Below, one piece after another: positions 2,507 to 61,656 of a DNA stretch of 64,000 nucleotides; position 1 is the first letter of the stretch; every line of letters starts with the position of its first letter. The notes under the pieces are model-generated. The model did no database searches. It had not been told where the DNA came from and saw only the letters and a list, made by a program, of their open reading frames with translations. The translations under genes were made by a program, and so were the position numbers. This DNA is from Candidatus Parcubacteria bacterium. Its GTDB lineage: Bacteria > Patescibacteriota > Patescibacteriia > Patescibacteriales > UBA12075. Location: the NCBI GenBank assembly GCA_002869165.1, contig PKTK01000001.1, forward strand, positions 157,006 to 221,005. Direction: 5' to 3'.

Positions 2507-3094
2507 ATGATTTTAGATGAAGGAAAAATTGAAAAAATAAGCGATGAAGAGCTGGTTTCTAAAGTTTTGGAAAACGAGGATTATTTTTTGTATCTAATGA
2601 GAAGGTATGAAACGAAATTATTGGCCTATATTTTACGTATATCAAGTAATAACAGTGAAGAAGCCGAGGATATTTTGCAAGATGTTTTTATTAAGGTGTA
2701 CAAAAATTTAAATAATTTTGATACAAATCTTAAATTTTCATCTTGGATTTATCGTATAACTCATAATGAAGTAATAAGTAAATACAGAAAAAATAAAAAA
2801 ATATTGCAATTTTCTGATCAAGAATTAAAAGACGAGATTTTCAATAGAATTGTTGATGATTTTGATGTAAAAGAAAAAGTAGACAATGATATACTTCGTA
2901 ATAAGTTACTTAAAAATATTGATTTGCTAGATGAAAAATATAGGAACGTTTTGGTATTAAAGTATTTTGAAGATAAAGAGTATGCAGAGATATCTTATAT
3001 TTTAGAAAAACCAGTTGGTTCTGTTGCTACTCTTTTGTATAGAGCAAAAAAGGAGTTAGCAAATTTGCTGCATCAAGATGATTTTAAAAAATAA
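2507..3094 (+). CDS. RNA polymerase sigma-70 factor, ECF subfamily
   Basis: Region 2 (DILQDVFIKVY, WIYRITHNEVISKYRK) and region 4 HTH (EYAEISYILEKPVGSVATLLYRAKKEL); start abuts the upstream stop (TAAATG). Confidence 0.85.
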   Translation: MILDEGKIEKISDEELVSKVLENEDYFLYLMRRYETKLLAYILRISSNNSEEAEDILQDVFIKVYKNLNNFDTNLKFSSWIYRITHNEVISKYRKNKKILQFSDQELKDEIFNRIVDDFDVKEKVDNDILRNKLLKNIDLLDEKYRNVLVLKYFEDKEYAEISYILEKPVGSVATLLYRAKKELANLLHQDDFKK

Positions 3095-4094
3095 TATGAC
3101 AAAAATTGATATAAGCAAAAAAGCTTTAGAAAAAATAAAATCAAGTCGTATCAAGCCTCGCGCTAAGTGGAAGTTTTTACTTACTGAAAATTTGTTTATA
3201 CTTCTTGAAATAGTGCTTGTTTTATTTACTGCTTTGTTTTTTGCTGTTACTATTAATCAACTCATTTATAGTGATTGGGATTTTTATGGCTATATAAATG
3301 GAAATTTATTTTATTATATTCTACAAGTTTTTCCATATTTTTGGTTTTTCTTTTTATTGTTGTTTTTTGTTTTAACATATTTGAATTTTAAAAATTTGAG
3401 AAGATCGTATAGATACAGCACTTACATAGTGCTTGGAACTTTTGTTTTTGTAGTGTTTAGTGCAGGCTATATTCTGTACACTATAGGCTATGCAAAAAAA
3501 ATTGATTTAACATTGATAGATAAATCAGAAATGTATTGTAATCATGTGAACAAGAGGCTAAACACCTGGAACCAGGCTGATAAGGGAATGATTGCTGGTA
3601 GGGTGATTGAGAATAAAGACAATTTTTTCATCATGCATGATCTTGAGGGGAATGTTTGGAATATTGTGTATGGCGATAGTTTATTGTTTGACAGGGAAGT
3701 TATAAACGAGGGAATGCCAATTCGGTTAGTGGGGGGCTTTGAAGAAAAGTTCAAAAATCTTGAACATAATATTTTAATAGCCAAAGAATTGATGCAGGAG
3801 GATTATCTGAATATAAAGTATTTTGATTTTGACAATCTAATTAATTCATTTTGTTTTTCTGATGATGACTGTAGTTTATCATTTGATTTTGCTATCCAGT
3901 CCAGGTGCCCATTCGATTCAGTTTGCATTAACCATACCTGTGAAACAGTTTGCCCGATTATGAATTTAAATAGCAGTGAAGGGTGTAGTGATGTTACAGA
4001 ATGTGATTGTGCTTCTTATTTGGCAACAGACAAAAAGGATTGTATTTGTGAGAATGAGAGGTGTTTGGTGGTGGTTGATGAAGTTAAGAATTAA
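3078..4094 (+). CDS. membrane protein with Cys-rich extracytoplasmic tail, candidate anti-sigma factor
   Basis: Overlaps the sigma gene by 17 nt; several hydrophobic segments; C-terminal CSLSFD..CPFDSVCINHTCETVCP..CDC..CICENERC. The anti-sigma call rests on position only. Confidence 0.55.
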   Translation: MILKNNMTKIDISKKALEKIKSSRIKPRAKWKFLLTENLFILLEIVLVLFTALFFAVTINQLIYSDWDFYGYINGNLFYYILQVFPYFWFFFLLLFFVLTYLNFKNLRRSYRYSTYIVLGTFVFVVFSAGYILYTIGYAKKIDLTLIDKSEMYCNHVNKRLNTWNQADKGMIAGRVIENKDNFFIMHDLEGNVWNIVYGDSLLFDREVINEGMPIRLVGGFEEKFKNLEHNILIAKELMQEDYLNIKYFDFDNLINSFCFSDDDCSLSFDFAIQSRCPFDSVCINHTCETVCPIMNLNSSEGCSDVTECDCASYLATDKKDCICENERCLVVVDEVKN

Positions 4095-4139
4095 GAATTA
4101 AGAATTAAGAATTAAGAATTAAGAATTAAGAATTAAGAA
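4084..4139. repeat. tandem heptamer array (TTAAGAA x 8)
   Basis: Eight perfect head-to-tail copies, starting inside the last codons and stop of CDS 3078..4094. Confidence 0.95.
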
Positions 4140-4153
4140 TAACCTCTTTTAAT

Positions 4154-4215
4154 TGTCATTCCCGGCTGGAGTTGTGAGCGAATGCGAGCAACGGAAGGGA
4201 AGGGAATCTCGTGAA
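4154..4215 (+). repeat. copy of dispersed TGTCATTC...GGAATCTC element
   Basis: TGTCATTCCCGGCTGGAG...GGGAAGGGAATCTCGTGAA; its ends match copies at 14713, 18117 and 18256(rc). Confidence 0.8.
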
Positions 4216-4243: not shown

Positions 4244-4276
4244 AGACCTCCGACGTCTCTGAGACGTCGGAGGTCT
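4244..4276. repeat. perfect 16+1+16 palindrome AGACCTCCGACGTCTC-T-GAGACGTCGGAGGTCT (REP-like)
   Basis: Read directly; related to the CAGACCTCCGAGGTCTG palindrome inside the RayT-like gene at 53771-53820. Confidence 0.9.
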
Positions 4277-4382: not shown

Positions 4383-5306
4383 TTATTTTAATCCGTATTT
4401 TTTGATATTATCATTAGCGATTTGTTGAATGTATTTGATCTGCTCTTTAGCAAGTTTGTTGTTTTCCAGTAAATGCTTGAATCTGCCTTGGGCCTTTAGA
4501 TAGTTGTCAACTTTTGGTGTTTTGGTTGGTACTTTCATTACATTTGTTAATTCACCATTTTCGTATTCTAATAAGGGATAAAGGCCGGTTTGAGCAGCTA
4601 ATTTTCCGATTTGCAGAGTCTGGTCAGGCGGAAATTTCCAACCAGGTACACAAGGGACCATGATTTGAATATAACTTGGGCCTGGGGTTTCAATGGCTTT
4701 TTTAACCTTAGCTTTGATATCTTCTAGATAGCCTACAGTGGTTTGAGCAACATAATTTAGTCTATGTGCTAAAGCGATAGCTACAATATCTTTTTTTCTA
4801 AGGTGTGAACCAATTGCATCAATGGATTTACCACTTCCAGATGGAGTAGTAGTGGTTGATGATCCCCAGGGAGTGGCAGTGGATGCTTGCATACCAGTAT
4901 TGGCATAGGCTTCATTATCATAGCAAACGTAAGTAATATCTTCACCTCTTTCCCACATACCAGAAATTAACCCGAAGCCAATGTCAAATGTTCCACCATC
5001 ACCGCCTTGGGCTAGTACTCTGGTCTTTTTTCCTTTGACTCCCTTAGAGTCAAGAGCAGCACGTACTCCAGAAGCAACCGCTGCAGCGTTTTCAAATAGT
5101 GAGTGTATCCAAGGTACGCCCCATGAACTTTCAGGATATGGAGAAGTGGTTACCTCAAGACAGCCTGTACCATTGGCTATAACTGTATTTGGCCCCATAG
5201 CTTCGATCACGGTACGAGCAGCAATCAGCTGACCACAACCCGCACAAGCTCTATGACCTGAGGCAAGTAAATGTTTTTTTGATTTAGGTTTTGTAGTTGT
5301 TGGCAT
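4383..5306 (-). CDS. porB: 2-oxoacid (pyruvate):ferredoxin oxidoreductase beta subunit (TPP-binding)
   Basis: CAGCGQ N-terminal Cys motif; TPP motif GDGGTFDIGF...YDNEAYANTG. Confidence 0.9.
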   Translation of the reverse strand: MPTTTKPKSKKHLLASGHRACAGCGQLIAARTVIEAMGPNTVIANGTGCLEVTTSPYPESSWGVPWIHSLFENAAAVASGVRAALDSKGVKGKKTRVLAQGGDGGTFDIGFGLISGMWERGEDITYVCYDNEAYANTGMQASTATPWGSSTTTTPSGSGKSIDAIGSHLRKKDIVAIALAHRLNYVAQTTVGYLEDIKAKVKKAIETPGPSYIQIMVPCVPGWKFPPDQTLQIGKLAAQTGLYPLLEYENGELTNVMKVPTKTPKVDNYLKAQGRFKHLLENNKLAKEQIKYIQQIANDNIKKYGLK

Positions 5307-5425: not shown

Positions 5426-5633
5426 AACTGGCTGGTATTATTTTTTTAATATCTTTTATATCTTTAATTTTATCAAATTGTCCTTTGAAGCTAGAAGCAT
5501 CAAGTATTTCTATTAGAATCGGTACACCTGTTTTTGACATGTGAATTATAATATTACCTATTTCGCGCGCATAGGATATTTCCCCCTTAGCAAGTTCTAG
5601 ACATATAATATTGGCCTCTGGATCGTAAATCAT
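5424..5633 (-). CDS. DUF2283-like small protein (candidate antitoxin)
   Basis: MIYDPEANIICLELAKGE...GVPILIEILDASSF fits the DUF2283 pattern as I recall it. Confidence 0.55.
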   Translation of the reverse strand: MIYDPEANIICLELAKGEISYAREIGNIIIHMSKTGVPILIEILDASSFKGQFDKIKDIKDIKKIIPAS

Positions 5634-5642
5634 ATTATTTAA

Positions 5643-5757
5643 TAAGCACTAAATTCTAATATCTAAATTCTAAATAATATCAAAATTCAAAATACAAATG
5701 TTTGAAACTTTAGATATTTGTGTTTTGAATTTGTTTAGAGTTTAGAATTTAGTGCTT
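5643..5757. repeat. long imperfect inverted repeat (hairpin) between the two small genes
   Basis: AAGCACTAAATTCTAA...CAAAATTCAAAATACAAAT pairs with ATTTGTGTTTTGAATTTG...TTAGAATTTAGTGCTT. Confidence 0.75.
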
Positions 5758-5764
5758 AGAGTTT

Positions 5765-5980
5765 TTACTTTACTGGATAAAAAGTAACTACTTTTTTTAA
5801 ATTACCGTGTTTCTGGTACACCACTTTGATGTTATCTTTTTTAGCTGATAAGTATTTACCTTTTTTACTGATCTTGTCAGGCATATTCAAACAATCCTCA
5901 ATTTCCTCACGCCGAAAAAACACCTTGTATTTATTCAATAGTTCAAACTTTTCTTCTGCGTATTTTGTGTAGTGGATCAT
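5765..5980 (-). CDS. DUF4258-like small protein (candidate toxin)
   Basis: 71 aa ending ...KVVYQKHGNLKKVVTFYPVK; adjacent to the DUF2283-like gene, a pairing I recall as recurrent. Confidence 0.45.
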   Translation of the reverse strand: MIHYTKYAEEKFELLNKYKVFFRREEIEDCLNMPDKISKKGKYLSAKKDNIKVVYQKHGNLKKVVTFYPVK

Positions 5981-5981
5981 A

Positions 5982-6851
5982 TTAGTGTGTAGTGTCCATG
6001 CAAACTTTTTTTACTGGATCGCAATACATTTGACTTGGACAACTATCAGAATTTTTACATTTCCTGTCCGTTTCTGTTGGAGGATGAATATCGTAGTAAC
6101 CTAGTTCCTTGTCATCTCCTATTGCATTAACTTTTTCCAAATTTAAATCTTTAAATTTTACCAAATCGGGGTTAACGATCCAAAGTAAAGTATAGGAAAA
6201 CATAGCTAAGGCTAGACCAGTTAGTGCAGCAATTATCCAGTCTTTAGCACCAGAAATCCTGGAAGCATTCCCCATGGAAGTTATCCAAATCAGACCATTT
6301 ATCATGATTATTACTGTGGCTATGATACCAACTACTCCAATAGCATACTGATAAATTGATTTTATATACTTTGCTATTGAGCTCGTGTCAGCCTTGGGTA
6401 TAAAACTTGAACTTGTATTACCACCGCTTGAGTTATTTGCTTGATTAGCAAGTTCAGCTTTTTTTTTATCACAATCTTCTTTATTAAGGGCGAATACTGT
6501 ACCATTTATATTACAATAAGTATTAATCTGGTTGTTGTTATTTTGGTTGGATGAGTCGTTACTTTCATTACTAGTATCACTGGTAACATCTGCGCTATCA
6601 GGTAGAGATGAGCCGTTATCTTCATTAGATGTGTTGTCACTAGAATCATCACTAGAATCAGGGTCCCCAGTATCCCAAGTATAGCCAGCAGCTTCGCAAG
6701 TAAGTTGAGTCCAGTTTGTTTCTGGCCCCCTGGGTGTGCCGCAATAAGCTGCTAGGACAGGTAAAAAGGGGGTAAAAGTAATATAGATTAGCAAAGATAA
6801 AAATAATGCCAATTTGAAATGTGGTATCCTGTTTTTGTTTATAATTTTCAT
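5982..6851 (-). CDS. T4SS pilin-like (VirB2/TrbC class, CPR 'T4SS_pilin' type) membrane protein with S/D/N-rich N-terminal region and Cys-containing tail
   Basis: Signal anchor; core IYQYAIGVVGIIATVIIMINGLIWITSMGNASRISGAKDWIIAALTGLALAMFSYTLLWIVNP has two TM helices around a G-N-x-x-x-I-x-x-AK loop. Confidence 0.55.
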   Translation of the reverse strand: MKIINKNRIPHFKLALFLSLLIYITFTPFLPVLAAYCGTPRGPETNWTQLTCEAAGYTWDTGDPDSSDDSSDNTSNEDNGSSLPDSADVTSDTSNESNDSSNQNNNNQINTYCNINGTVFALNKEDCDKKKAELANQANNSSGGNTSSSFIPKADTSSIAKYIKSIYQYAIGVVGIIATVIIMINGLIWITSMGNASRISGAKDWIIAALTGLALAMFSYTLLWIVNPDLVKFKDLNLEKVNAIGDDKELGYYDIHPPTETDRKCKNSDSCPSQMYCDPVKKVCMDTTH

Positions 6852-8520: not shown

Positions 8521-8811
8521 TTACTTTTTCTCTAGCTTCATTTTAATAGCTTTTACTGGGCATTCGGTGGCGCAGACTCCACAACCTTTGCAGTAGTCGT
8601 AGTCGGTGACTGGTTTTTGGCTGGCTTTATTTTTTTGCATCACTATGCATGATTCAGGGCAGGCTTTGGCGCAGGTGCCACAACCAATGCATTTTTTATA
8701 ATCAGTTTCCGGGATATAAGTGCGCCATGAACCGGTTTTGTTATTTAATGTTGAAGCAGCTTTGCTTGTTATGTCCATATTTGTATATTGATAAATAATT
8801 ATTTTTGTCAT
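8521..8811 (-). CDS. porD: 2-oxoacid:ferredoxin oxidoreductase delta subunit (2x[4Fe-4S] ferredoxin)
   Basis: CIGCGTCAKACP and CKGCGVCATECP motifs. Confidence 0.9.
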   Translation of the reverse strand: MTKIIIYQYTNMDITSKAASTLNNKTGSWRTYIPETDYKKCIGCGTCAKACPESCIVMQKNKASQKPVTDYDYCKGCGVCATECPVKAIKMKLEKK

Positions 8812-8933
8812 CTCCCTGCCTGCCGGCAGGCAGGGTAGCAGAGCAGAGCAGAGAGATTCCTTAAACGTGGTATTAGTTTAAACTGAGATATTCCCAAGAC
8901 CAAGGGATTCCTCACCTCCGGTTCGGAATGGCA
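8806..8933. repeat. composite GC-rich repeat block (TGTCATCTC...CCTTAAACG unit, 20-bp palindrome, inverted TGCCATTCCGAAC...GGAATCCC unit)
   Basis: Shares ends with the copy at 39725-39759 and the palindrome CCTGCCTGCCGGCAGGCAGG (8815-8834) with 18211-18230; overlaps the porD start codon. Confidence 0.7.
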
Positions 8934-9646: not shown

Positions 9647-10336
9647 TTATTTTAAATGATTAATTATAGTGTCAAAATCTTCATCAGAGATAGTTCCTTT
9701 GATGACTTGGCCATTAATAAACCAAATAGGCGTGCCTAAGTTGTGAACACCAAGTTTTTGAGCATCATCAAAATCTTGTTGGATTTTGGGGATATATTTT
9801 TTTGAATCAAAACATGATCCAAATTTTTCCATATCAACTCCGACTTGTTTAGCAAGAGTATATATTTCTTGTTTCTCCTTGACTCCTTGTTTTATAAAGA
9901 GTTTGTCATGCATTTGCCAAAATAACTCCTGCTCACCAGCACATCTTGCTGCCAGGGCCAGATCAAGTGAATAATCATGTACAATCGGTAGATCTCTCCA
10001 GATGTATTTTACCTTGTCATTATATAATGTACTTATCTCTCTGATCTTTTGAAATGAAGCTTTGCAGTAAGGACAGGAAAAATCAGCAAATTCAACTATT
10101 ACAATCTGAGCATCATCGGCACCTATAGAGTGATTACTACCATCTCCTAAAATTAACTTTTCCGCATCCAAAATGTTTTCTTCAAGTCCTGGACTTAACA
10201 GGGTTTTTTCCAGTTTACTTGATTCTAAAAATGTATTCAGTACCAACGAAGCTAGAAATATCAGAAATATTATAAAAAAAGCTTTGGAAAAAAATTTAAA
10301 AAAGGCCAATAATGATTGTTTGGAATTATTTGTCAT
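9647..10336 (-). CDS. membrane-anchored DsbA-family thiol:disulfide oxidoreductase
   Basis: N-terminal TM segment; thioredoxin-fold active site FSCPYCKAS. Confidence 0.8.
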   Translation of the reverse strand: MTNNSKQSLLAFFKFFSKAFFIIFLIFLASLVLNTFLESSKLEKTLLSPGLEENILDAEKLILGDGSNHSIGADDAQIVIVEFADFSCPYCKASFQKIREISTLYNDKVKYIWRDLPIVHDYSLDLALAARCAGEQELFWQMHDKLFIKQGVKEKQEIYTLAKQVGVDMEKFGSCFDSKKYIPKIQQDFDDAQKLGVHNLGTPIWFINGQVIKGTISDEDFDTIINHLK

Positions 10337-18116: not shown

Positions 18117-18256
18117 TGTTATTCCCGGCTGGAGCTACTTAATCCTTAGGCATAAACTCCGAGTAGGGGAAGGGGATCTTGTCAGTTCTAATCTTTGCGA
18201 GATTCCCTTCCCTGTCTGCCGGCAGGCAGGCCTCCCTTCGGTCGCCGGGAATGACA
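18117..18256. repeat. composite hairpin built from two inverted TGTCATTCCCGGC... elements plus a 20-bp palindrome
   Basis: TGTTATTCCCGGCTGGAG (18117-) and GCCGGGAATGACA (-18256) are inverted; GGGGAAGGGGATCT / AGATTCCCTTCCC inner arms; CCTGTCTGCCGGCAGGCAGG at 18211-18230. Confidence 0.8.
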
Positions 18257-52159: not shown

Positions 52160-53593
52160 ATGAAAAATAAATTTTATATAACTACAACCCTTCCTTATGT
52201 TAATGCTGACCCACATATCGGCTTTGCGGCAGAAATATTGCGAGCAGATGTATTGGCTCGTTTTGCTAGATTAGAAGGAAAAGAAGTTTTTTTTAATACA
52301 GGCACAGATGAGCATGGTTTAAAAATACATCGCAAGGCAATTGAGCAAAAAAAAGATCCTCAAGTATATGTTGATGAATATGCAAAGAAATTTGATGAGC
52401 TAAAAAAAGCCTTGAATTTAAGTTACAATAATTTCATTCGAACAACCGATAAAAATCACAAAAAGTCAGCTCAAGAGTTCTGGAAAAAATGTAATGCTAG
52501 TGGAGATATATATAAAAAGAATTATAAAGTTAATTATTGTGTTGGCTGTGAATTAGAATTAACAGAATCAGAACTAGTTGATGGTAAGTGTCCACATCAC
52601 CCTAATCAGGAAATTGAATACATTGAAGAAGAGAATTATTTTTTTCGTTGGAGTAAGTATGCTGACAAATTACTAGATTTTTATGAAAGAAATCCAGATT
52701 TTATTGTGCCAAAACACAGAATGAATGAAATTAAACGTTTTATTGAAGCTGGGCTTCAGGATTTTTCTATTTCTCGATTAAAATCAAAAATGCCCTGGGG
52801 GGTTCCTGTGCCAGGAGATGGTGAGCATGTAATGTATGTTTGGTTTGATGCTTTGACTAATTACATAAATTGTTTAAATTGGGTAGAGGATGATAAAATG
52901 TTTCATGACTTTTGGCCAGGGATGCAAGTAGCTGGCAAGGATAATCTTCGTCAGCAAACAGCCATGTGGCAAGCCATGTTAATGAGCGCTGGTCTTCCTA
53001 ATTCAAAGCAGATTTTGATATTTGGTTTTATTAATTCAAATGGTCAAAAAATGAGTAAAAGCTTGGGAAATGTGGTTAACCCATATGATTTAATAAAGAA
53101 ATATGGAATAGATGCTACCAGATATTATTTATTGTCGGGATTAAAGCCTTTTGAGGATTCTGATTTTACTTATGATAAATTTGAAGAAAAATATAACGCT
53201 GATTTAGCTAATGGTCTTGGAAATCTAGTAGCCAGAGTTTCCAATATGCTTGAGAAAAATAAAATCGAAATAGATATTAAAATTGGCTCAGATGATGATT
53301 TAAAAAAACGAGTGAAAGAGAAATTGGACAAATATCTTTTTGATGAAGCCTTGAAAGTGTTGTGGGATGAATTACGCAAAGATGATGAATTTTTAAGCCA
53401 AAAAACTCCATGGAAGTTAAAAGACGTAAAAGAAATTAAGGAAGTTTTGGAGCCGGTGGCACAAAGCATATTGAATGCGGCTGACTTACTTTCAGTATTT
53501 CTTCCAGATGTGGCTGAAAAAATAATTACTCAATTTAATCAAAATCAAGTAAAAAAAGGCGAGCCTTTGTTTACAAGATTAACAAAAGAGTAA
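52160..53593 (+). CDS. metG: methionine--tRNA ligase (short form)
   Basis: ATG 52160 (MKNKFYITTTLPYVNADPHIGFA) preferred over the track's TTG 52100; KMSKS; Zn knuckle CVGCE...CPHH. Confidence 0.9.
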   Translation: MKNKFYITTTLPYVNADPHIGFAAEILRADVLARFARLEGKEVFFNTGTDEHGLKIHRKAIEQKKDPQVYVDEYAKKFDELKKALNLSYNNFIRTTDKNHKKSAQEFWKKCNASGDIYKKNYKVNYCVGCELELTESELVDGKCPHHPNQEIEYIEEENYFFRWSKYADKLLDFYERNPDFIVPKHRMNEIKRFIEAGLQDFSISRLKSKMPWGVPVPGDGEHVMYVWFDALTNYINCLNWVEDDKMFHDFWPGMQVAGKDNLRQQTAMWQAMLMSAGLPNSKQILIFGFINSNGQKMSKSLGNVVNPYDLIKKYGIDATRYYLLSGLKPFEDSDFTYDKFEEKYNADLANGLGNLVARVSNMLEKNKIEIDIKIGSDDDLKKRVKEKLDKYLFDEALKVLWDELRKDDEFLSQKTPWKLKDVKEIKEVLEPVAQSILNAADLLSVFLPDVAEKIITQFNQNQVKKGEPLFTRLTKE

Positions 53594-53594
53594 T

Positions 53595-54092
53595 ATGAAA
53601 TACGAAGGAGGGTATTATCATGTTTATAATCGAGGAGTTGACAAGAGAAAGGTTTTTAATACAGAAAAAGATTATAAGAGGTTTTTGCAATCGTTGATAG
53701 AGTTTAATACGGTAAATCCAATAGGTAGCATTAGAGAAGTTAATAGATATAAAGTCTTAGAAAATAGCACCGTTTCCAGACCTCCGAGGTCTGCAGATGC
53801 AGACCTCGGAGGTCTGGAAACTACGGTTTCTTTAGTTAAGATATATGCATATTGTTTATTGCCAAATCATTTTCATTTATTGGTCAAAGAAGAGCAAGAG
53901 AAAGGTGTTGGTAGGTTTATGAGTAAGGTTGGGAATGGTTATACAAAATATTTTAACATTATCAACAACCGCTCGGGTTTTTTATTTCAAGGCAAGTACA
54001 AAAAGAAATTGATTGACAATGAAAATTATCTTGCGTATTTAACTGCTTATATAAATTGTAATTCTGAGATTCACGAAATAAAAAAGGCATAA
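53595..54092 (+). CDS. IS200/RayT-like HUH (Y1) transposase family protein; the frame continues past the TAA at 54090 to 54272
   Basis: YHVYNRG, LLPNHFHLLV (HUH), YLAYLTAYINCN (catalytic Tyr region); the family-typical W.WSS..DYL follows the stop in frame. Confidence 0.7.
   Translation: MKYEGGYYHVYNRGVDKRKVFNTEKDYKRFLQSLIEFNTVNPIGSIREVNRYKVLENSTVSRPPRSADADLGGLETTVSLVKIYAYCLLPNHFHLLVKEEQEKGVGRFMSKVGNGYTKYFNIINNRSGFLFQGKYKKKLIDNENYLAYLTAYINCNSEIHEIKKA
53771..53820. repeat. 50-nt nested palindrome inside the RayT-like CDS
   Basis: GTTTCCAGACCTCCGAGGTCTGCA-GA-TGCAGACCTCGGAGGTCTGGAAAC, perfect 24-nt arms. Confidence 0.9.
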
Positions 54093-54292
54093 AAATGGAA
54101 ATGGTCTAGTTTGAATGATTATTTGAATAAAATTGTTACTAAAGTCTCAGATTATCGTATCAATAAAGGACTAGATAAAGAGATAAGTTATAGCGAGCAC
54201 ATGAAGGACGTTGTAAAAAATGCTAAATCAATCAAAGATGACAAAAGACTATATTTATTTGAAAATATTTAAAAATTAAATTAATAAAACCT

Positions 54293-55963
54293 ATGCAAAA
54301 AGCATTTATCTCAATGTTGACAATGACATTGTTATTAGGGTCTTTGTCTATGCCGGTATTAGCGACATACGATGACTCAACAAGCGACACAAGTTCTAGT
54401 GTTAATTCTATTACGCTTTCGGGAACTGGAAGTTCCATTGAGTGGAGCGTTAATGGTTATAGCTCAAAAGGATTTAAAGTTGTGTGGTCAAAAAATGAAA
54501 ATCCAACCTATCCATTACGTGATGGTGACAAGTATAATTATTATACTGATCCAGAAAAAAGTAGTGATATTTTGACAGCTTTTTCTGGAGAAGGGACTTA
54601 TTATGTTCGAGTTTGTGAGTATCTTGGTGGATCCTGTGGAGTGTATTCAAATCAAATTACTTTGAGCCTGGGGAGCGGCTCTCAAGTAGCTTGTACCATG
54701 GAATATAATCCAGTTTGTGGAGCAAATGGTAATACCTATTCAAATAAGTGCATGGCTGAAGCCGCTGGTACTAGTAAGGCATATTATGGTGAATGCACGA
54801 ATGAGGAAAGTGGAAATGTAAATTCAATAACCTTACAAGTAGAGGGAGATTATGCAATTTGGGAAATAGATGGCACTAGCACAAAAGGATTTAAAGTTGT
54901 GTGGTCAAAAAATGAAAATCCAACATATCCAAACAGAGAAGGTGACAAGTATTATTATTTTTCTGATCCAAGTAAGCGCAAAGCAGAGCTTAAAGCTTTT
55001 TCAGGTGATGGTATATATTATGTAAGAGTATGTGAGTATTTAGGAGGAGCCTGTGGTGTCTACTCAAATCAGATGGAGATTGAATTGAATGAGGGTGGTA
55101 GTGTGACAGCATGTACTAAGGAATACGATCCAGTTTGTGGGGCTGATGGTAAGACCTATTCAAATAAATGTATGGCTGAAGCCTCTGGAACATACAAAGA
55201 GTATTATGGTATGTGCACTGATAAAGAACTTGAACAAATTGAAGAAAATGCAGAAAAACTAAGTCAAAATGATCTAGATTCAATATTAACTGAATTAGAA
55301 GAGTTAAGAAATACAGTAAAAGAGCAAGAAAATCAAATAAAGTATTTACAAAAATTATTATCAAATGTTCAGGCAATAAGTGATGAAATGCAAACCTCTA
55401 TAAATAATTTTATTACTTATGGGGTTGATAAAAATACCAAGGAACTTGGCGAGGGAGAAAGAGCAGCTGTTATTTATTCATTTAAAGCTGCCTATGGTAA
55501 GTTGCCAGAAGATGAATTAGAGTTAAGTGATGCAGTAAAAATTGCCAATGGTCGTTTTCCAAGTATGAAGAGCAAAGATGCTGAGAGTGAAGCTCAAGAA
55601 AAATTTCAAGAAATTTACAAAAGAATAGCTGATATGCGAGATTCTCGTGATGAAGCGGCTATTACGGTTATGGCATACGGTTTAAGACAAAAAGCAGAAA
55701 ATAGAAACTTGAAATCAGAAGAAAATGGAATAAAGATTTTCAGGAGTGTATTTGGTAAAAATCCTGAGACAACTGAAGAGTGGAATGCTATGCAAGCTAT
55801 AACATATTCTGGAGCTACCAGAGGAGTAGATAGCGACGGAGATTTGTTAGTTGATGAGCGAGAAGGAGAACTTGGTACAGATCCTGAAAATCCTGATACT
55901 GACAGTGATGGATATTTAGATGGAATTGAAGTAGCTAACGGCCATGACCCATTGAATGGTTAA
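54293..55963 (+). CDS. secreted protein with two tandem [beta-rich domain + Kazal-type inhibitor-like domain] modules, coiled coil and TSP3-like repeats
   Basis: Signal peptide; ACTMEYNPVCGANGNTYSNKCMAEAAG...GEC and ACTKEYDPVCGADGKTYSNKCMAEASG...GMC; C-terminal DSDGDLLVDERE, DTDSDGYLDGIE. Confidence 0.75.
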   Translation: MQKAFISMLTMTLLLGSLSMPVLATYDDSTSDTSSSVNSITLSGTGSSIEWSVNGYSSKGFKVVWSKNENPTYPLRDGDKYNYYTDPEKSSDILTAFSGEGTYYVRVCEYLGGSCGVYSNQITLSLGSGSQVACTMEYNPVCGANGNTYSNKCMAEAAGTSKAYYGECTNEESGNVNSITLQVEGDYAIWEIDGTSTKGFKVVWSKNENPTYPNREGDKYYYFSDPSKRKAELKAFSGDGIYYVRVCEYLGGACGVYSNQMEIELNEGGSVTACTKEYDPVCGADGKTYSNKCMAEASGTYKEYYGMCTDKELEQIEENAEKLSQNDLDSILTELEELRNTVKEQENQIKYLQKLLSNVQAISDEMQTSINNFITYGVDKNTKELGEGERAAVIYSFKAAYGKLPEDELELSDAVKIANGRFPSMKSKDAESEAQEKFQEIYKRIADMRDSRDEAAITVMAYGLRQKAENRNLKSEENGIKIFRSVFGKNPETTEEWNAMQAITYSGATRGVDSDGDLLVDEREGELGTDPENPDTDSDGYLDGIEVANGHDPLNG

Positions 55964-61583: not shown

Positions 61584-61656
61584 GTGTCATTCTGAGCAGA
61601 GTGGAGGATCTTGTAAATAACGGGATTTTTCACTCCGCTCAGAATGACACTTTTTT
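61584..61656 (+). terminator. hairpin made of two inverted GTGTCATTCTGAGC elements plus a T-run, probable parB terminator
   Basis: GTGTCATTCTGAGCAGAG (61584-61601) matches the reverse complement of 61633-61650 at 17/18; TTTTTT follows. Confidence 0.65.

Follow-up and report, generated by a model that had tools for sequence, protein, structure and literature searches.

The 64,000-nt stretch of Candidatus Parcubacteria bacterium DNA analyzed here (GenBank assembly GCA_002869165.1, contig PKTK01000001.1, positions 157,006 to 221,005; hereafter the window) contains a gene of the Y1/HUH transposase family that resembles those of the REP-associated tyrosine transposases (RAYTs), and that carries within its reading frame a 50-nt nested palindrome organized as a doublet of repetitive extragenic palindromes (REPs). 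Enzymes of the RayT/TnpA_REP type, which belong to the Y1 HUH class, bind and cut such DNA hairpins in single-stranded DNA. The features of the gene, together with a second palindrome situated elsewhere in the window, are as follows, in window coordinates:

53595-54272, forward strand: RayT-like Y1/HUH transposase-family gene, 225 codons, broken by an in-frame TAA
53616-53636, forward strand: N-terminal conserved block YHVYNRG, strand beta1 of the HUH fold; H9, N12, R13, and G14 are invariant (alignment A1)
53769-53827, no strand assigned: extended hairpin, with extra ACC/GGT pairs past a 3-nt bulge (single-stranded DNA fold)
53772-53821, no strand assigned: 50-nt nested palindrome, a REP doublet with a REPIN-like layout, in frame and encoding ..VSRPPRSADADLGGLET..
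53865-53879, forward strand: HUH motif NHFHL, on the strand after the loop; N91, H92, and H94 are invariant
54036-54062, forward strand: Tyr-motif helix YLTAYINCN with the presumed catalytic tyrosine; Y152 and N156 are invariant
54090-54092, forward strand: in-frame TAA, truncating the protein after the catalytic core
4244-4276, no strand assigned: dispersed sister REP doublet, composed of unit AGACCTCCGACGTCT and its complement with a 3-nt spacer

In the source annotation the gene appears as a 165-aa hypothetical protein of Candidatus Parcubacteria bacterium (C0583_00980, on a contig of 584,723 bp), which is identical to the product of the open reading frame (ORF) at 53595-54092 (P0001, 100% match). 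Its assignment to the RayT/IS200-like HUH enzymes, made in the initial annotation from the letters of the sequence, agrees with a match to Pfam Y1_Tnp (PF01797; 28.5 bits against a cutoff of 23, E = 1.9e-6, residues 81-154), with the presence of both an HUH motif (NHFHL, residues 91-95) and a single tyrosine motif (YINCN) whose Y152 and N156 are invariant in 33 sequences, and with the structural comparison of a homolog described below. The match to the NCBIfam RayT equivalog model NF047646 is weak (32.5 bits against a cutoff of 80), and relatives of the window protein score 26.8 (P0026) and 63.2 (L104-type) against the same model.

The palindrome itself had been placed at 53771-53820; it is present, but one base further on, at 53772-53821. 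Its arms (53772-53795 and 53798-53821) are 24 nt each, 100% complementary, and separated by a 2-nt spacer, and each arm, in agreement with the nesting noted earlier, contains a near-palindromic 15-mer: AGACCTCCGAGGTCT at 53778-53792 and the complement form AGACCTCGGAGGTCT at 53801-53815. The two 15-nt REP units thus lie inverted and 8 nt apart, and together would form one predicted 24-bp stem, the organization of a REP doublet forming a hairpin (REPIN). Folded as single-stranded DNA, the extended hairpin reaches -31.3 kcal/mol against a shuffle mean of -7.3 kcal/mol (z = -11.9), a value that none of 200 shuffles equaled. Situated after the YHVYNRG block and before the NHFHL motif, the palindrome is read in frame as part of the peptide STVSRPPRSADADLGGLETTVS (residues 58-79, nt 53766-53831), as the initial annotation had it. 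The REP class to which the units belong follows the pattern AGACCTCC[GA]A[GC]GTCT, and the unit of the window may be written (C)AGACCTCCGAGGTCT(G); it has no GTAG, and the conserved GT[AG]G head 5' of the stem is absent. REPs with a double foot, GTAG...CTAC, are found in the relatives L015, L032, and L049.

When up to 3 mismatches are allowed, the 15-mer core occurs at just two places in the 64 kb, where 0.41 matches are expected by chance; it yields 8 strand-matches, a number reached by none of 100 shuffles. No gene of the window other than the RayT-like gene carries the repeat. The second place is the palindrome at 4244-4276, the sister copy proposed earlier: its 16-nt arms (4244-4259 and 4261-4276) are perfect, it folds at -18.2 kcal/mol (z = -7.4), and its units differ by one base from the gene-internal unit. 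It lies within a 290-nt gap between the convergent genes 3078-4094 (forward strand) and 4383-5306 (reverse strand), and its 3-nt spacer is the commonest architecture of AGACCTCCGAGGTCT-class REPs in metagenomes. The 4244-4276 palindrome is a dispersed copy of the gene-internal REP class.

The same class extends well beyond the window. A metagenome scan for the 17-mer CAGACCTCCRAGGTCTG returned at least 120 contigs; because a 17-mer may, by a rough estimate, match by chance in so huge a collection, the full set of matches was rejected as proof of a cosmopolitan REP, and only those contigs with a doublet (35) or with a rayT-like gene at the site of the match (5) were counted. The 35 contigs in which a second unit is adjacent range in GC content from 0.38 to 0.69, and have spacers mostly of 3 nt (23 cases) or 8 nt (11 cases), which are the two spacings present in the window. 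Contig L001 encodes P0026, a protein 42-44% identical to that of the window, and holds CAGACCTCCAAGGTCTGCA-GT-TGCAGACCTTGGAGGTCTG in the same loop; compared with the window, the arms of the L001 doublet show matching G>A and C>T changes (CCGAGG/CCTCGG in the window, CCAAGG/CCTTGG in L001). The proteins of L101, L193, and L202 are 67-79% identical to P0026, and their genes have the doublet at loop 1 in the same frame (RPPRSA.ADLGG), as does L001. L193 represents a full REPtron, with doublets at both flanks, while L202, as in the window, has the internal doublet only. Together these data show that the 50-nt palindrome is a REP doublet of a widespread class, AGACCTCCGAGGTCT, copies of which are also dispersed and flank rayT-like genes, and the earlier description of the palindrome as REP-like holds. 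The window's REP class is also carried by two GC-rich and probably non-CPR (candidate phyla radiation) rayT-like genes, in L104 (~5527-6084, reverse strand) and L199 (2996-3650), where the REP stands directly after the HUH strand (..HLMVGIKQ[TSEVWETSEVS]..); L104 contains 15 REP units in 8 kb.

For the comparison with relatives, DNA was drawn from 79 loci of a genome collection and from contigs for two specific homologs; the source genome of the window was not among the loci returned from the genome collection (80 kept), and the host assemblies are mainly of Patescibacteria/CPR type. In the protein alignment, the loop between '..EFN..PIGS..' and 'LV.I.AYCLNPNH.H' is highly variable in both length and sequence. 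In a first pass over 70 distinct homologous genes, 56 had a loop palindrome whose arms measured 8 nt or more, in many cases with perfect arms of 10-26 nt. Of 61 relatives scored with their flanks, 46 have a GC-rich palindrome as the coding sequence of this loop ahead of the HUH strand, though the proteins are only ~40% identical and the palindrome sequence differs from gene to gene; the 15 genes without a loop hairpin still look intact. The density of perfect palindromes (arms of at least 10 nt, spacer of at most 5 nt) is 6.45 per kb within the loops, compared with 0.27 per kb across 1.17 Mb of other sequence; most of the palindromes in the latter are clustered beside these genes and repeat the sequence of the loop palindrome. 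The initial annotation had considered a hairpin inside the transposase gene odd. Given its frequency in homologs, and a published precedent in TnpA_REP subclass 2.4 (PMC6006769), it is no peculiarity of this gene.

A positional census of GC-rich perfect palindromes in 60 genes with complete flanks counted 42 in the 200 nt upstream, 38 in loop 1 before the HUH strand, 11 in the short linker just after the Tyr helix (site 2), and 35 in the 200 nt downstream, against 1 in the N-terminal part, 1 in the far C-terminal part, and 0 in the 13.7 kb of the HUH-to-Tyr region. Flank hairpins, the characteristic feature of a REPtron, are regular in the family (5' in 41 of 61 genes, 3' in 39 of 61). The enzyme's own REP thus has its hot spots in loop 1, in the linker that follows the Tyr helix, and on either side of the gene. 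At site 2, an in-frame REP is seen in ~15 relatives (L054 10471-10493, L058 10424-10462, L030, L040, L041, L047, L077, L083, and others); its frame is that of loop 1, such that a heptapeptide, for example LGSRTPK, is repeated and brackets the catalytic core. The TAA of the window gene (54090-54092) falls in this short linker. A further in-frame palindrome, AGCAGTCCAACC...GGTTGGACTGCT, lies in the C-terminal variable region of P0018 (L003, 10566-10603), within an insertion that in the alignment is common to P0031 only.

The copies within one locus resemble one another. In 33 of 38 cases the loop hairpin shares at least a 10-mer with a flank hairpin of its own gene, whereas it does so with the hairpins of other genes in 43 of 1404 comparisons (3.1%). 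At L058 an identical 23-mer occupies all four positions, and at L054 the same 23-mer is found with one mismatch in the loop copy; the internal copies of these two loci stand in one frame, and LGSRTPK (or LGSPTSK) therefore appears twice in the protein. The orientation of the four copies is uniform in L054 and L058 and alternating or variable in L030 and L083, and a fixed orientation was rejected as a general rule. Comparison of N-terminal, core, and C-terminal module identities over 2415 protein pairs, made to look for modules shuffled at the internal REPs, gave correlations of 0.30, 0.62, and 0.25 and no clear mosaics, the 33-residue N-terminal module being too short and too conserved.

Within the largest hairpin class, ACTT[AG]G-N11-C[CT]AAGT, which comprises 119 occurrences at 35 loci and 77 distinct 23-mers, it is the structure of the hairpin rather than its sequence that is conserved. 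The five inner pairs, which were not used in selecting the 23-mers, are Watson-Crick in 87% of cells and form at least 30 different stems; 95.9% of the cells of the named structure pair, a value that falls to 19-53% when the partner is slid by 1-3 columns. Changes on both sides of a pair are seen in 144 cells as compared with 47 in shuffles, and none of 500 shuffles reached the observed count. The long loop palindromes, that of the window included, consist of two inverted copies of a short palindrome, the layout of REPINs and of bacterial interspersed mosaic elements (BIMEs). Reading frame is also constrained: in the ACTTGG clade a single frame accounts for 18 of 19 loop-1 copies and for 15 of 17 site-2 calls, the other two calls overlapping the stop codon and so being in reality 3'-flank copies, while the frames of the 3'-flank copies are distributed 8/6/6.

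In the ACTTGG-type relatives (L027-L083; e.g., L083 ~9961-9983, L050, L044, and L064), the upstream REP starts ~37 nt before the ATG, at exactly -37 in 16 of 24 and between -37 and -40 in 20 of 24. By an eye count, a -10-like TAnnnT box follows 2 nt after the upstream REP in ~17 of 24, with the TTGGnA left foot of the REP 17 nt upstream of the box. From these spacings, the upstream REP looks like a promoter built into the repeat, and the mRNA would be nearly leaderless.

This recurrence bears upon the more trivial accounts of the palindrome. That it might be an artefact of assembly or sequencing, or a chance palindrome, could be entertained given that the window comes from a metagenome-assembled genome (MAG) and that, at L019, the letters NN stand at the tip of a palindrome. 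Yet dozens of independent assemblies, produced by different projects, have an in-frame palindrome at this position of the gene, the same doublet is present in four other independent contigs, and neither the fold energy relative to shuffles nor the two occurrences of the core in the window are expected of a chance palindrome. The recurrence in independent assemblies excludes artefact and chance, and we regard the probability of either as negligible. The L019 locus deserves mention in its own right, as its loop palindrome (768-819) has 25-nt arms with the NN exactly at the tip; assemblers or scaffolders evidently break at loop hairpins, and such elements could be hidden or distorted in MAGs.

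The palindromes could alternatively have arisen at a fragile spot of the gene through local fold-back (template-switch) synthesis, with nesting produced by two inverted duplications. Consistent with such an origin are the perfect arms, which reach 26 nt, the construction of the long palindromes from two inverted copies of a short one, and the observation that the right arm often covers the conserved K-L-V codons while the left arm is its reverse complement, as in CCACCAACTTGG...CCAAGTTGGTGG of L021. However, the same hairpin recurs beyond the gene, not only in the two flanks but also at distances of kilobases (L018 at 7558 and 11238, L062 at 11222, and the window at 4244), and the window's REP class is present in many unrelated contigs. 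Fold-back synthesis also leaves unexplained the identical copies at four separate sites of one locus. The distant matches largely refute this mechanism as the main one, and we consider it very unlikely.

The protein structure indicates why the loop might accept such DNA. The AlphaFold2 model of P0026, an intact homolog used in place of the window protein, has a mean predicted local distance difference test (pLDDT) score of 90, and its only 10-residue blocks of low confidence (pLDDT 54-79) span residues 41-70, between a helix (28-41) and a strand (78-85) that is followed by the HUH strand (89-96). The top Foldseek match of this model in the PDB is 4ER8, the E. coli RayT bound to a REP hairpin (E = 5e-7), followed by the TnpA proteins of ISDra2 and IS608, all of the HUH/RRM-like fold; a profile search of PDB sequences returned nothing at E values up to 0.01, and 4ER8 was reached by the fold search alone. 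Taken together, the low pLDDT and the RayT-like fold match suggest that the palindrome encodes a surface loop, probably a flexible one, situated between the first helix and the strand ahead of the HUH strand. An alignment of the family profile with the L104 protein (hhalign E = 4e-39, 41% identity) runs from end to end and shows a 31-residue gap exactly at loop 1. That the segment is an insertion, a point that the initial annotation had proposed to check by family alignment, is accordingly supported, the hypervariable loop being absent from some family members and from the L104-type protein.

Three origins or roles for the internal hairpin had been offered at the outset, namely a self-insertion, a regulatory structure, or a sign of inactivation. 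The data best support the first, and insertion of the enzyme's own REP into a permissive loop is probably the correct explanation. Under such a model, the RayT-like Y1 enzyme would recognize its REP hairpins in single-stranded DNA and would act preferentially in cis, on its own single-stranded locus, where it would insert or replace REP copies at loop 1, at the linker after the Tyr helix, and at both flanks, and so keep the copies matched. Selection would then retain only those copies that are in frame and that encode a harmless, hydrophilic loop peptide, the peptide being presumed neutral. The identity and position of the palindrome, its recurrence across the family, covariation, and the locus-specific identity of internal and flanking copies are what the data show.

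Several observations weigh against self-insertion as a complete account. The window gene has no flanking REPs, and one further copy only is present in the 64 kb. The frame bias (18 of 19 and 15 of 17, compared with 8/6/6 in the 3' flank) is not predicted by random insertion followed by a simple filter against stop codons, and points either to common descent with later homogenization or to selection on the peptide or the structure. The entry of the right arm of many loop hairpins into the K-L-V codons means that the palindrome is not a cleanly delimited insert. Lastly, 8 relatives, together with the window's gene as judged by the REP-core search, keep a loop hairpin without flank hairpins, and the internal copy could in such cases have been retained for a function.

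Retention for a function is the essence of the regulatory alternative, in which the hairpin inside the gene would be maintained as a cis-acting regulator instead of being a tolerated by-product: by binding its own hairpin, as DNA or mRNA, the enzyme would limit its own production or, in a variant, the 24-bp RNA stem would target the mRNA for a double-strand-specific RNase or slow translation. Such a role overlaps with self-insertion as regards origin, and differs as to why the hairpin persists. The loop-only genes just mentioned speak for it, as do the occupancy of the loop in three quarters of such divergent genes, the near-fixed frame at both internal sites, the co-variation of the internal copy with the flank copies, the high stability of the stem, and the fixed position of the 5' copy ahead of a -10-like box, which implies that REPs are already wired into expression signals in the relatives. 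Nevertheless, the genes that lack a loop hairpin look intact; the sequence of the hairpin, its length (singlet or doublet), and its distance from the conserved blocks vary widely; and insertion of a cognate REP predicts the co-variation with the flanks equally well. In the window, no terminator or promoter was detected at the hairpin or elsewhere in 53300-54500, and the hairpin matches no Rfam family, the only similarities being to generic long-hairpin miRNA models (33.5 bits against a threshold of 94). On balance, a regulatory or self-recognition role appears unlikely but is kept as a live alternative, since the frame bias and the loop-only genes sit poorly with a purely neutral view.

A bolder form of the same idea is that the internal hairpins are working parts, with each gene of the family keeping its own recognition hairpin at four fixed places (within the promoter at -37, ahead of the HUH strand, past the Tyr helix, and beyond the stop), so that the enzyme senses and acts on its own locus. 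We hold this to be improbable; it would entail autoregulation or the enzyme-driven replacement or excision of gene segments, for example the in-frame removal of the catalytic core between two internal copies of the same frame. It would also describe a self-targeting HUH enzyme whose substrate is written into its own coding sequence, and would explain the identity of internal and flanking copies.

The remaining proposal, that the palindrome marks inactivation, was rejected, as the palindrome is in frame and is carried by many intact homologs. The host gene instead looks to have been inactivated by a separate nonsense codon, which the initial annotation had not noticed, and by the loss of its flanking REPs. 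Homologs number 2091, and the best 120 of these (~187-243 aa) read through the position of the window's TAA, where Glu is the usual residue; beyond the TAA the same frame continues with the family-conserved KWKWSSLNDY... (the W.WSS..DY block) up to 54272. Read-through in the homologs and the conserved downstream frame together indicate a recent nonsense change. The gene begins 2 nt past the stop of a methionyl-tRNA-synthetase-like ORF (metG) and is followed ~20 nt downstream by the next ORF, and these tight neighbors leave it without flanking non-coding DNA and without flanking hairpins; a search for the REP core with up to 3 mismatches found none nearby. A tblastn search of the 64-kb window with 33 family proteins returned the host gene itself and no paralog. 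The window gene is best read as a decaying REPtron that has kept its loop doublet, lost its flanking REPs, and acquired a premature TAA; as such, the element is probably a relic of small individual importance.

Other repeats are present in the window. A second and unrelated family, TGTCATTCCCGGC...GGGAAGGGAATCTCG, occurs at 4157-4215 (forward strand), 18195-18256 (reverse strand), and 8806-8840 (forward strand), one copy lying ~30 nt from the sister REP doublet; its palindromic core, CCTGCCTGCCGGCAGGCAGG, is found at 8815-8834 and, with one mismatch, at 18211-18230, as well as in other genomes (L055 at 14801 and L071 at 3528). A perfect tandem repeat, TTAAGAA x 8.1 (4084-4140), lies at the 3' end of the ORF at 3078-4094, extends beyond its stop, and shares a convergent intergenic gap with the sister palindrome. 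Finally, an intergenic hairpin at 61584-61650, with 27-nt arms that are 85% complementary and begin GTGTCATTCTGAGC, precedes a run of T; it represents a further type of element, terminator-like or REP-like.

The closest known counterpart of the window's feature is found among the tnpA_REP genes of subclass 2.4, in which REPs have been described as inserted within the gene without breaking its frame (Quentin, Siguier, Chandler, and Fichant, 2018; BMC Genomics 19:475, PMC6006769, Fig. S10). As there, the REPs of the family studied here both flank the gene and lie inside it, in frame and in a variable peripheral region of the protein, and the double-foot GTAG...CTAC REPs of L015, L032, and L049 are a further point of likeness. 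The positions differ: in subclass 2.4 (PMC6006769) the variable insert follows the HUH strand and precedes helix alphaC, between HuH and Y, whereas the inserts described here precede the HUH strand or follow the Tyr helix and none falls between HUH and Tyr. The hosts differ as well, being here mainly Patescibacteria/CPR-type assemblies. In L104 and L199 the window's REP class immediately follows the HUH strand, which is the subclass 2.4 position, and L104 is a putative member of that subclass. The kind of feature, an in-frame REP in a tnpA_REP gene, is therefore already known, and it is the site and the host group that are different. Literature searches found no paper on RAYT genes with internal REPs in Patescibacteria/CPR.

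Similarities to other systems are more partial. RAYT genes are normally flanked by their own REPs (Nunvar, 2010, PMC2817692), and the family resembles the REPtron or RAYT-REP system in combining a Y1 HUH gene with short, GC-rich flanking hairpins, of which relatives also show dispersed copies (Nunvar, 2010, PMC2817692; Ton-Hoang, 2012; 4ER8, Messing, 2012, PMC3479197); it differs in its weak NF047646 match, in a window REP without a GTAG head, in the hairpins inside the coding sequence, and in the fixed distances of the relatives' flank hairpins (-37 from the ATG and just after the stop). A REP doublet is the mobile unit termed REPIN (Bertels and Rainey, 2011, PMC3116915), and by definition REPINs form populations that are extragenic and of high copy number. 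The window's palindrome shares with REPINs two inverted REP units, a short spacer, one predicted long hairpin, and matching arm changes (here relative to L001), but it is intragenic and in frame; 2 copies are present in the 64 kb. A variety of genes contain REPs in frame (Di Nocera, 2013, PMC3733652), which, like the Rickettsia palindromic elements (Ogata, 2000, cited there), are palindromic repeats that add 20-30 residues in tolerated regions; those, however, reside in many unrelated genes (uvrA, dnaE2, and others), whereas here it is the transposase-family gene itself that is affected, and recurrently in two loops. Lastly, the TnpA proteins of the IS200/IS605 insertion sequences (IS608, ISDra2) have the same fold, and many relatives have subterminal hairpins on both sides (-37 and just after the stop) as those elements do; the proteins described here are longer, with a RayT-like C-terminal extension and internal hairpins, and the window copy, having no end hairpins and beginning 2 nt from metG, forms no recognizable insertion sequence.

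Taken as a whole, a loop REP is the rule in this RayT-like family, and has a precedent in a sister subclass. REP/RAYT systems are among the most abundant small repeats of bacteria, and both the spread of REPs and the persistence of the transposase gene still await explanation. What was reported in 2018 for subclass 2.4 is here extended to another site of insertion and to genomes of Patescibacteria type, which are tiny and contain few other repeats. Loop palindromes also explain the hypervariable, low-complexity-looking segments of proteins annotated as 'transposase' or hypothetical, as well as occasional assembly gaps at palindrome tips. Moreover, the family constitutes a natural test bed, in which an enzyme and its substrate co-vary on one 0.8-kb piece of DNA, with copies that are identical within a locus and different between loci.

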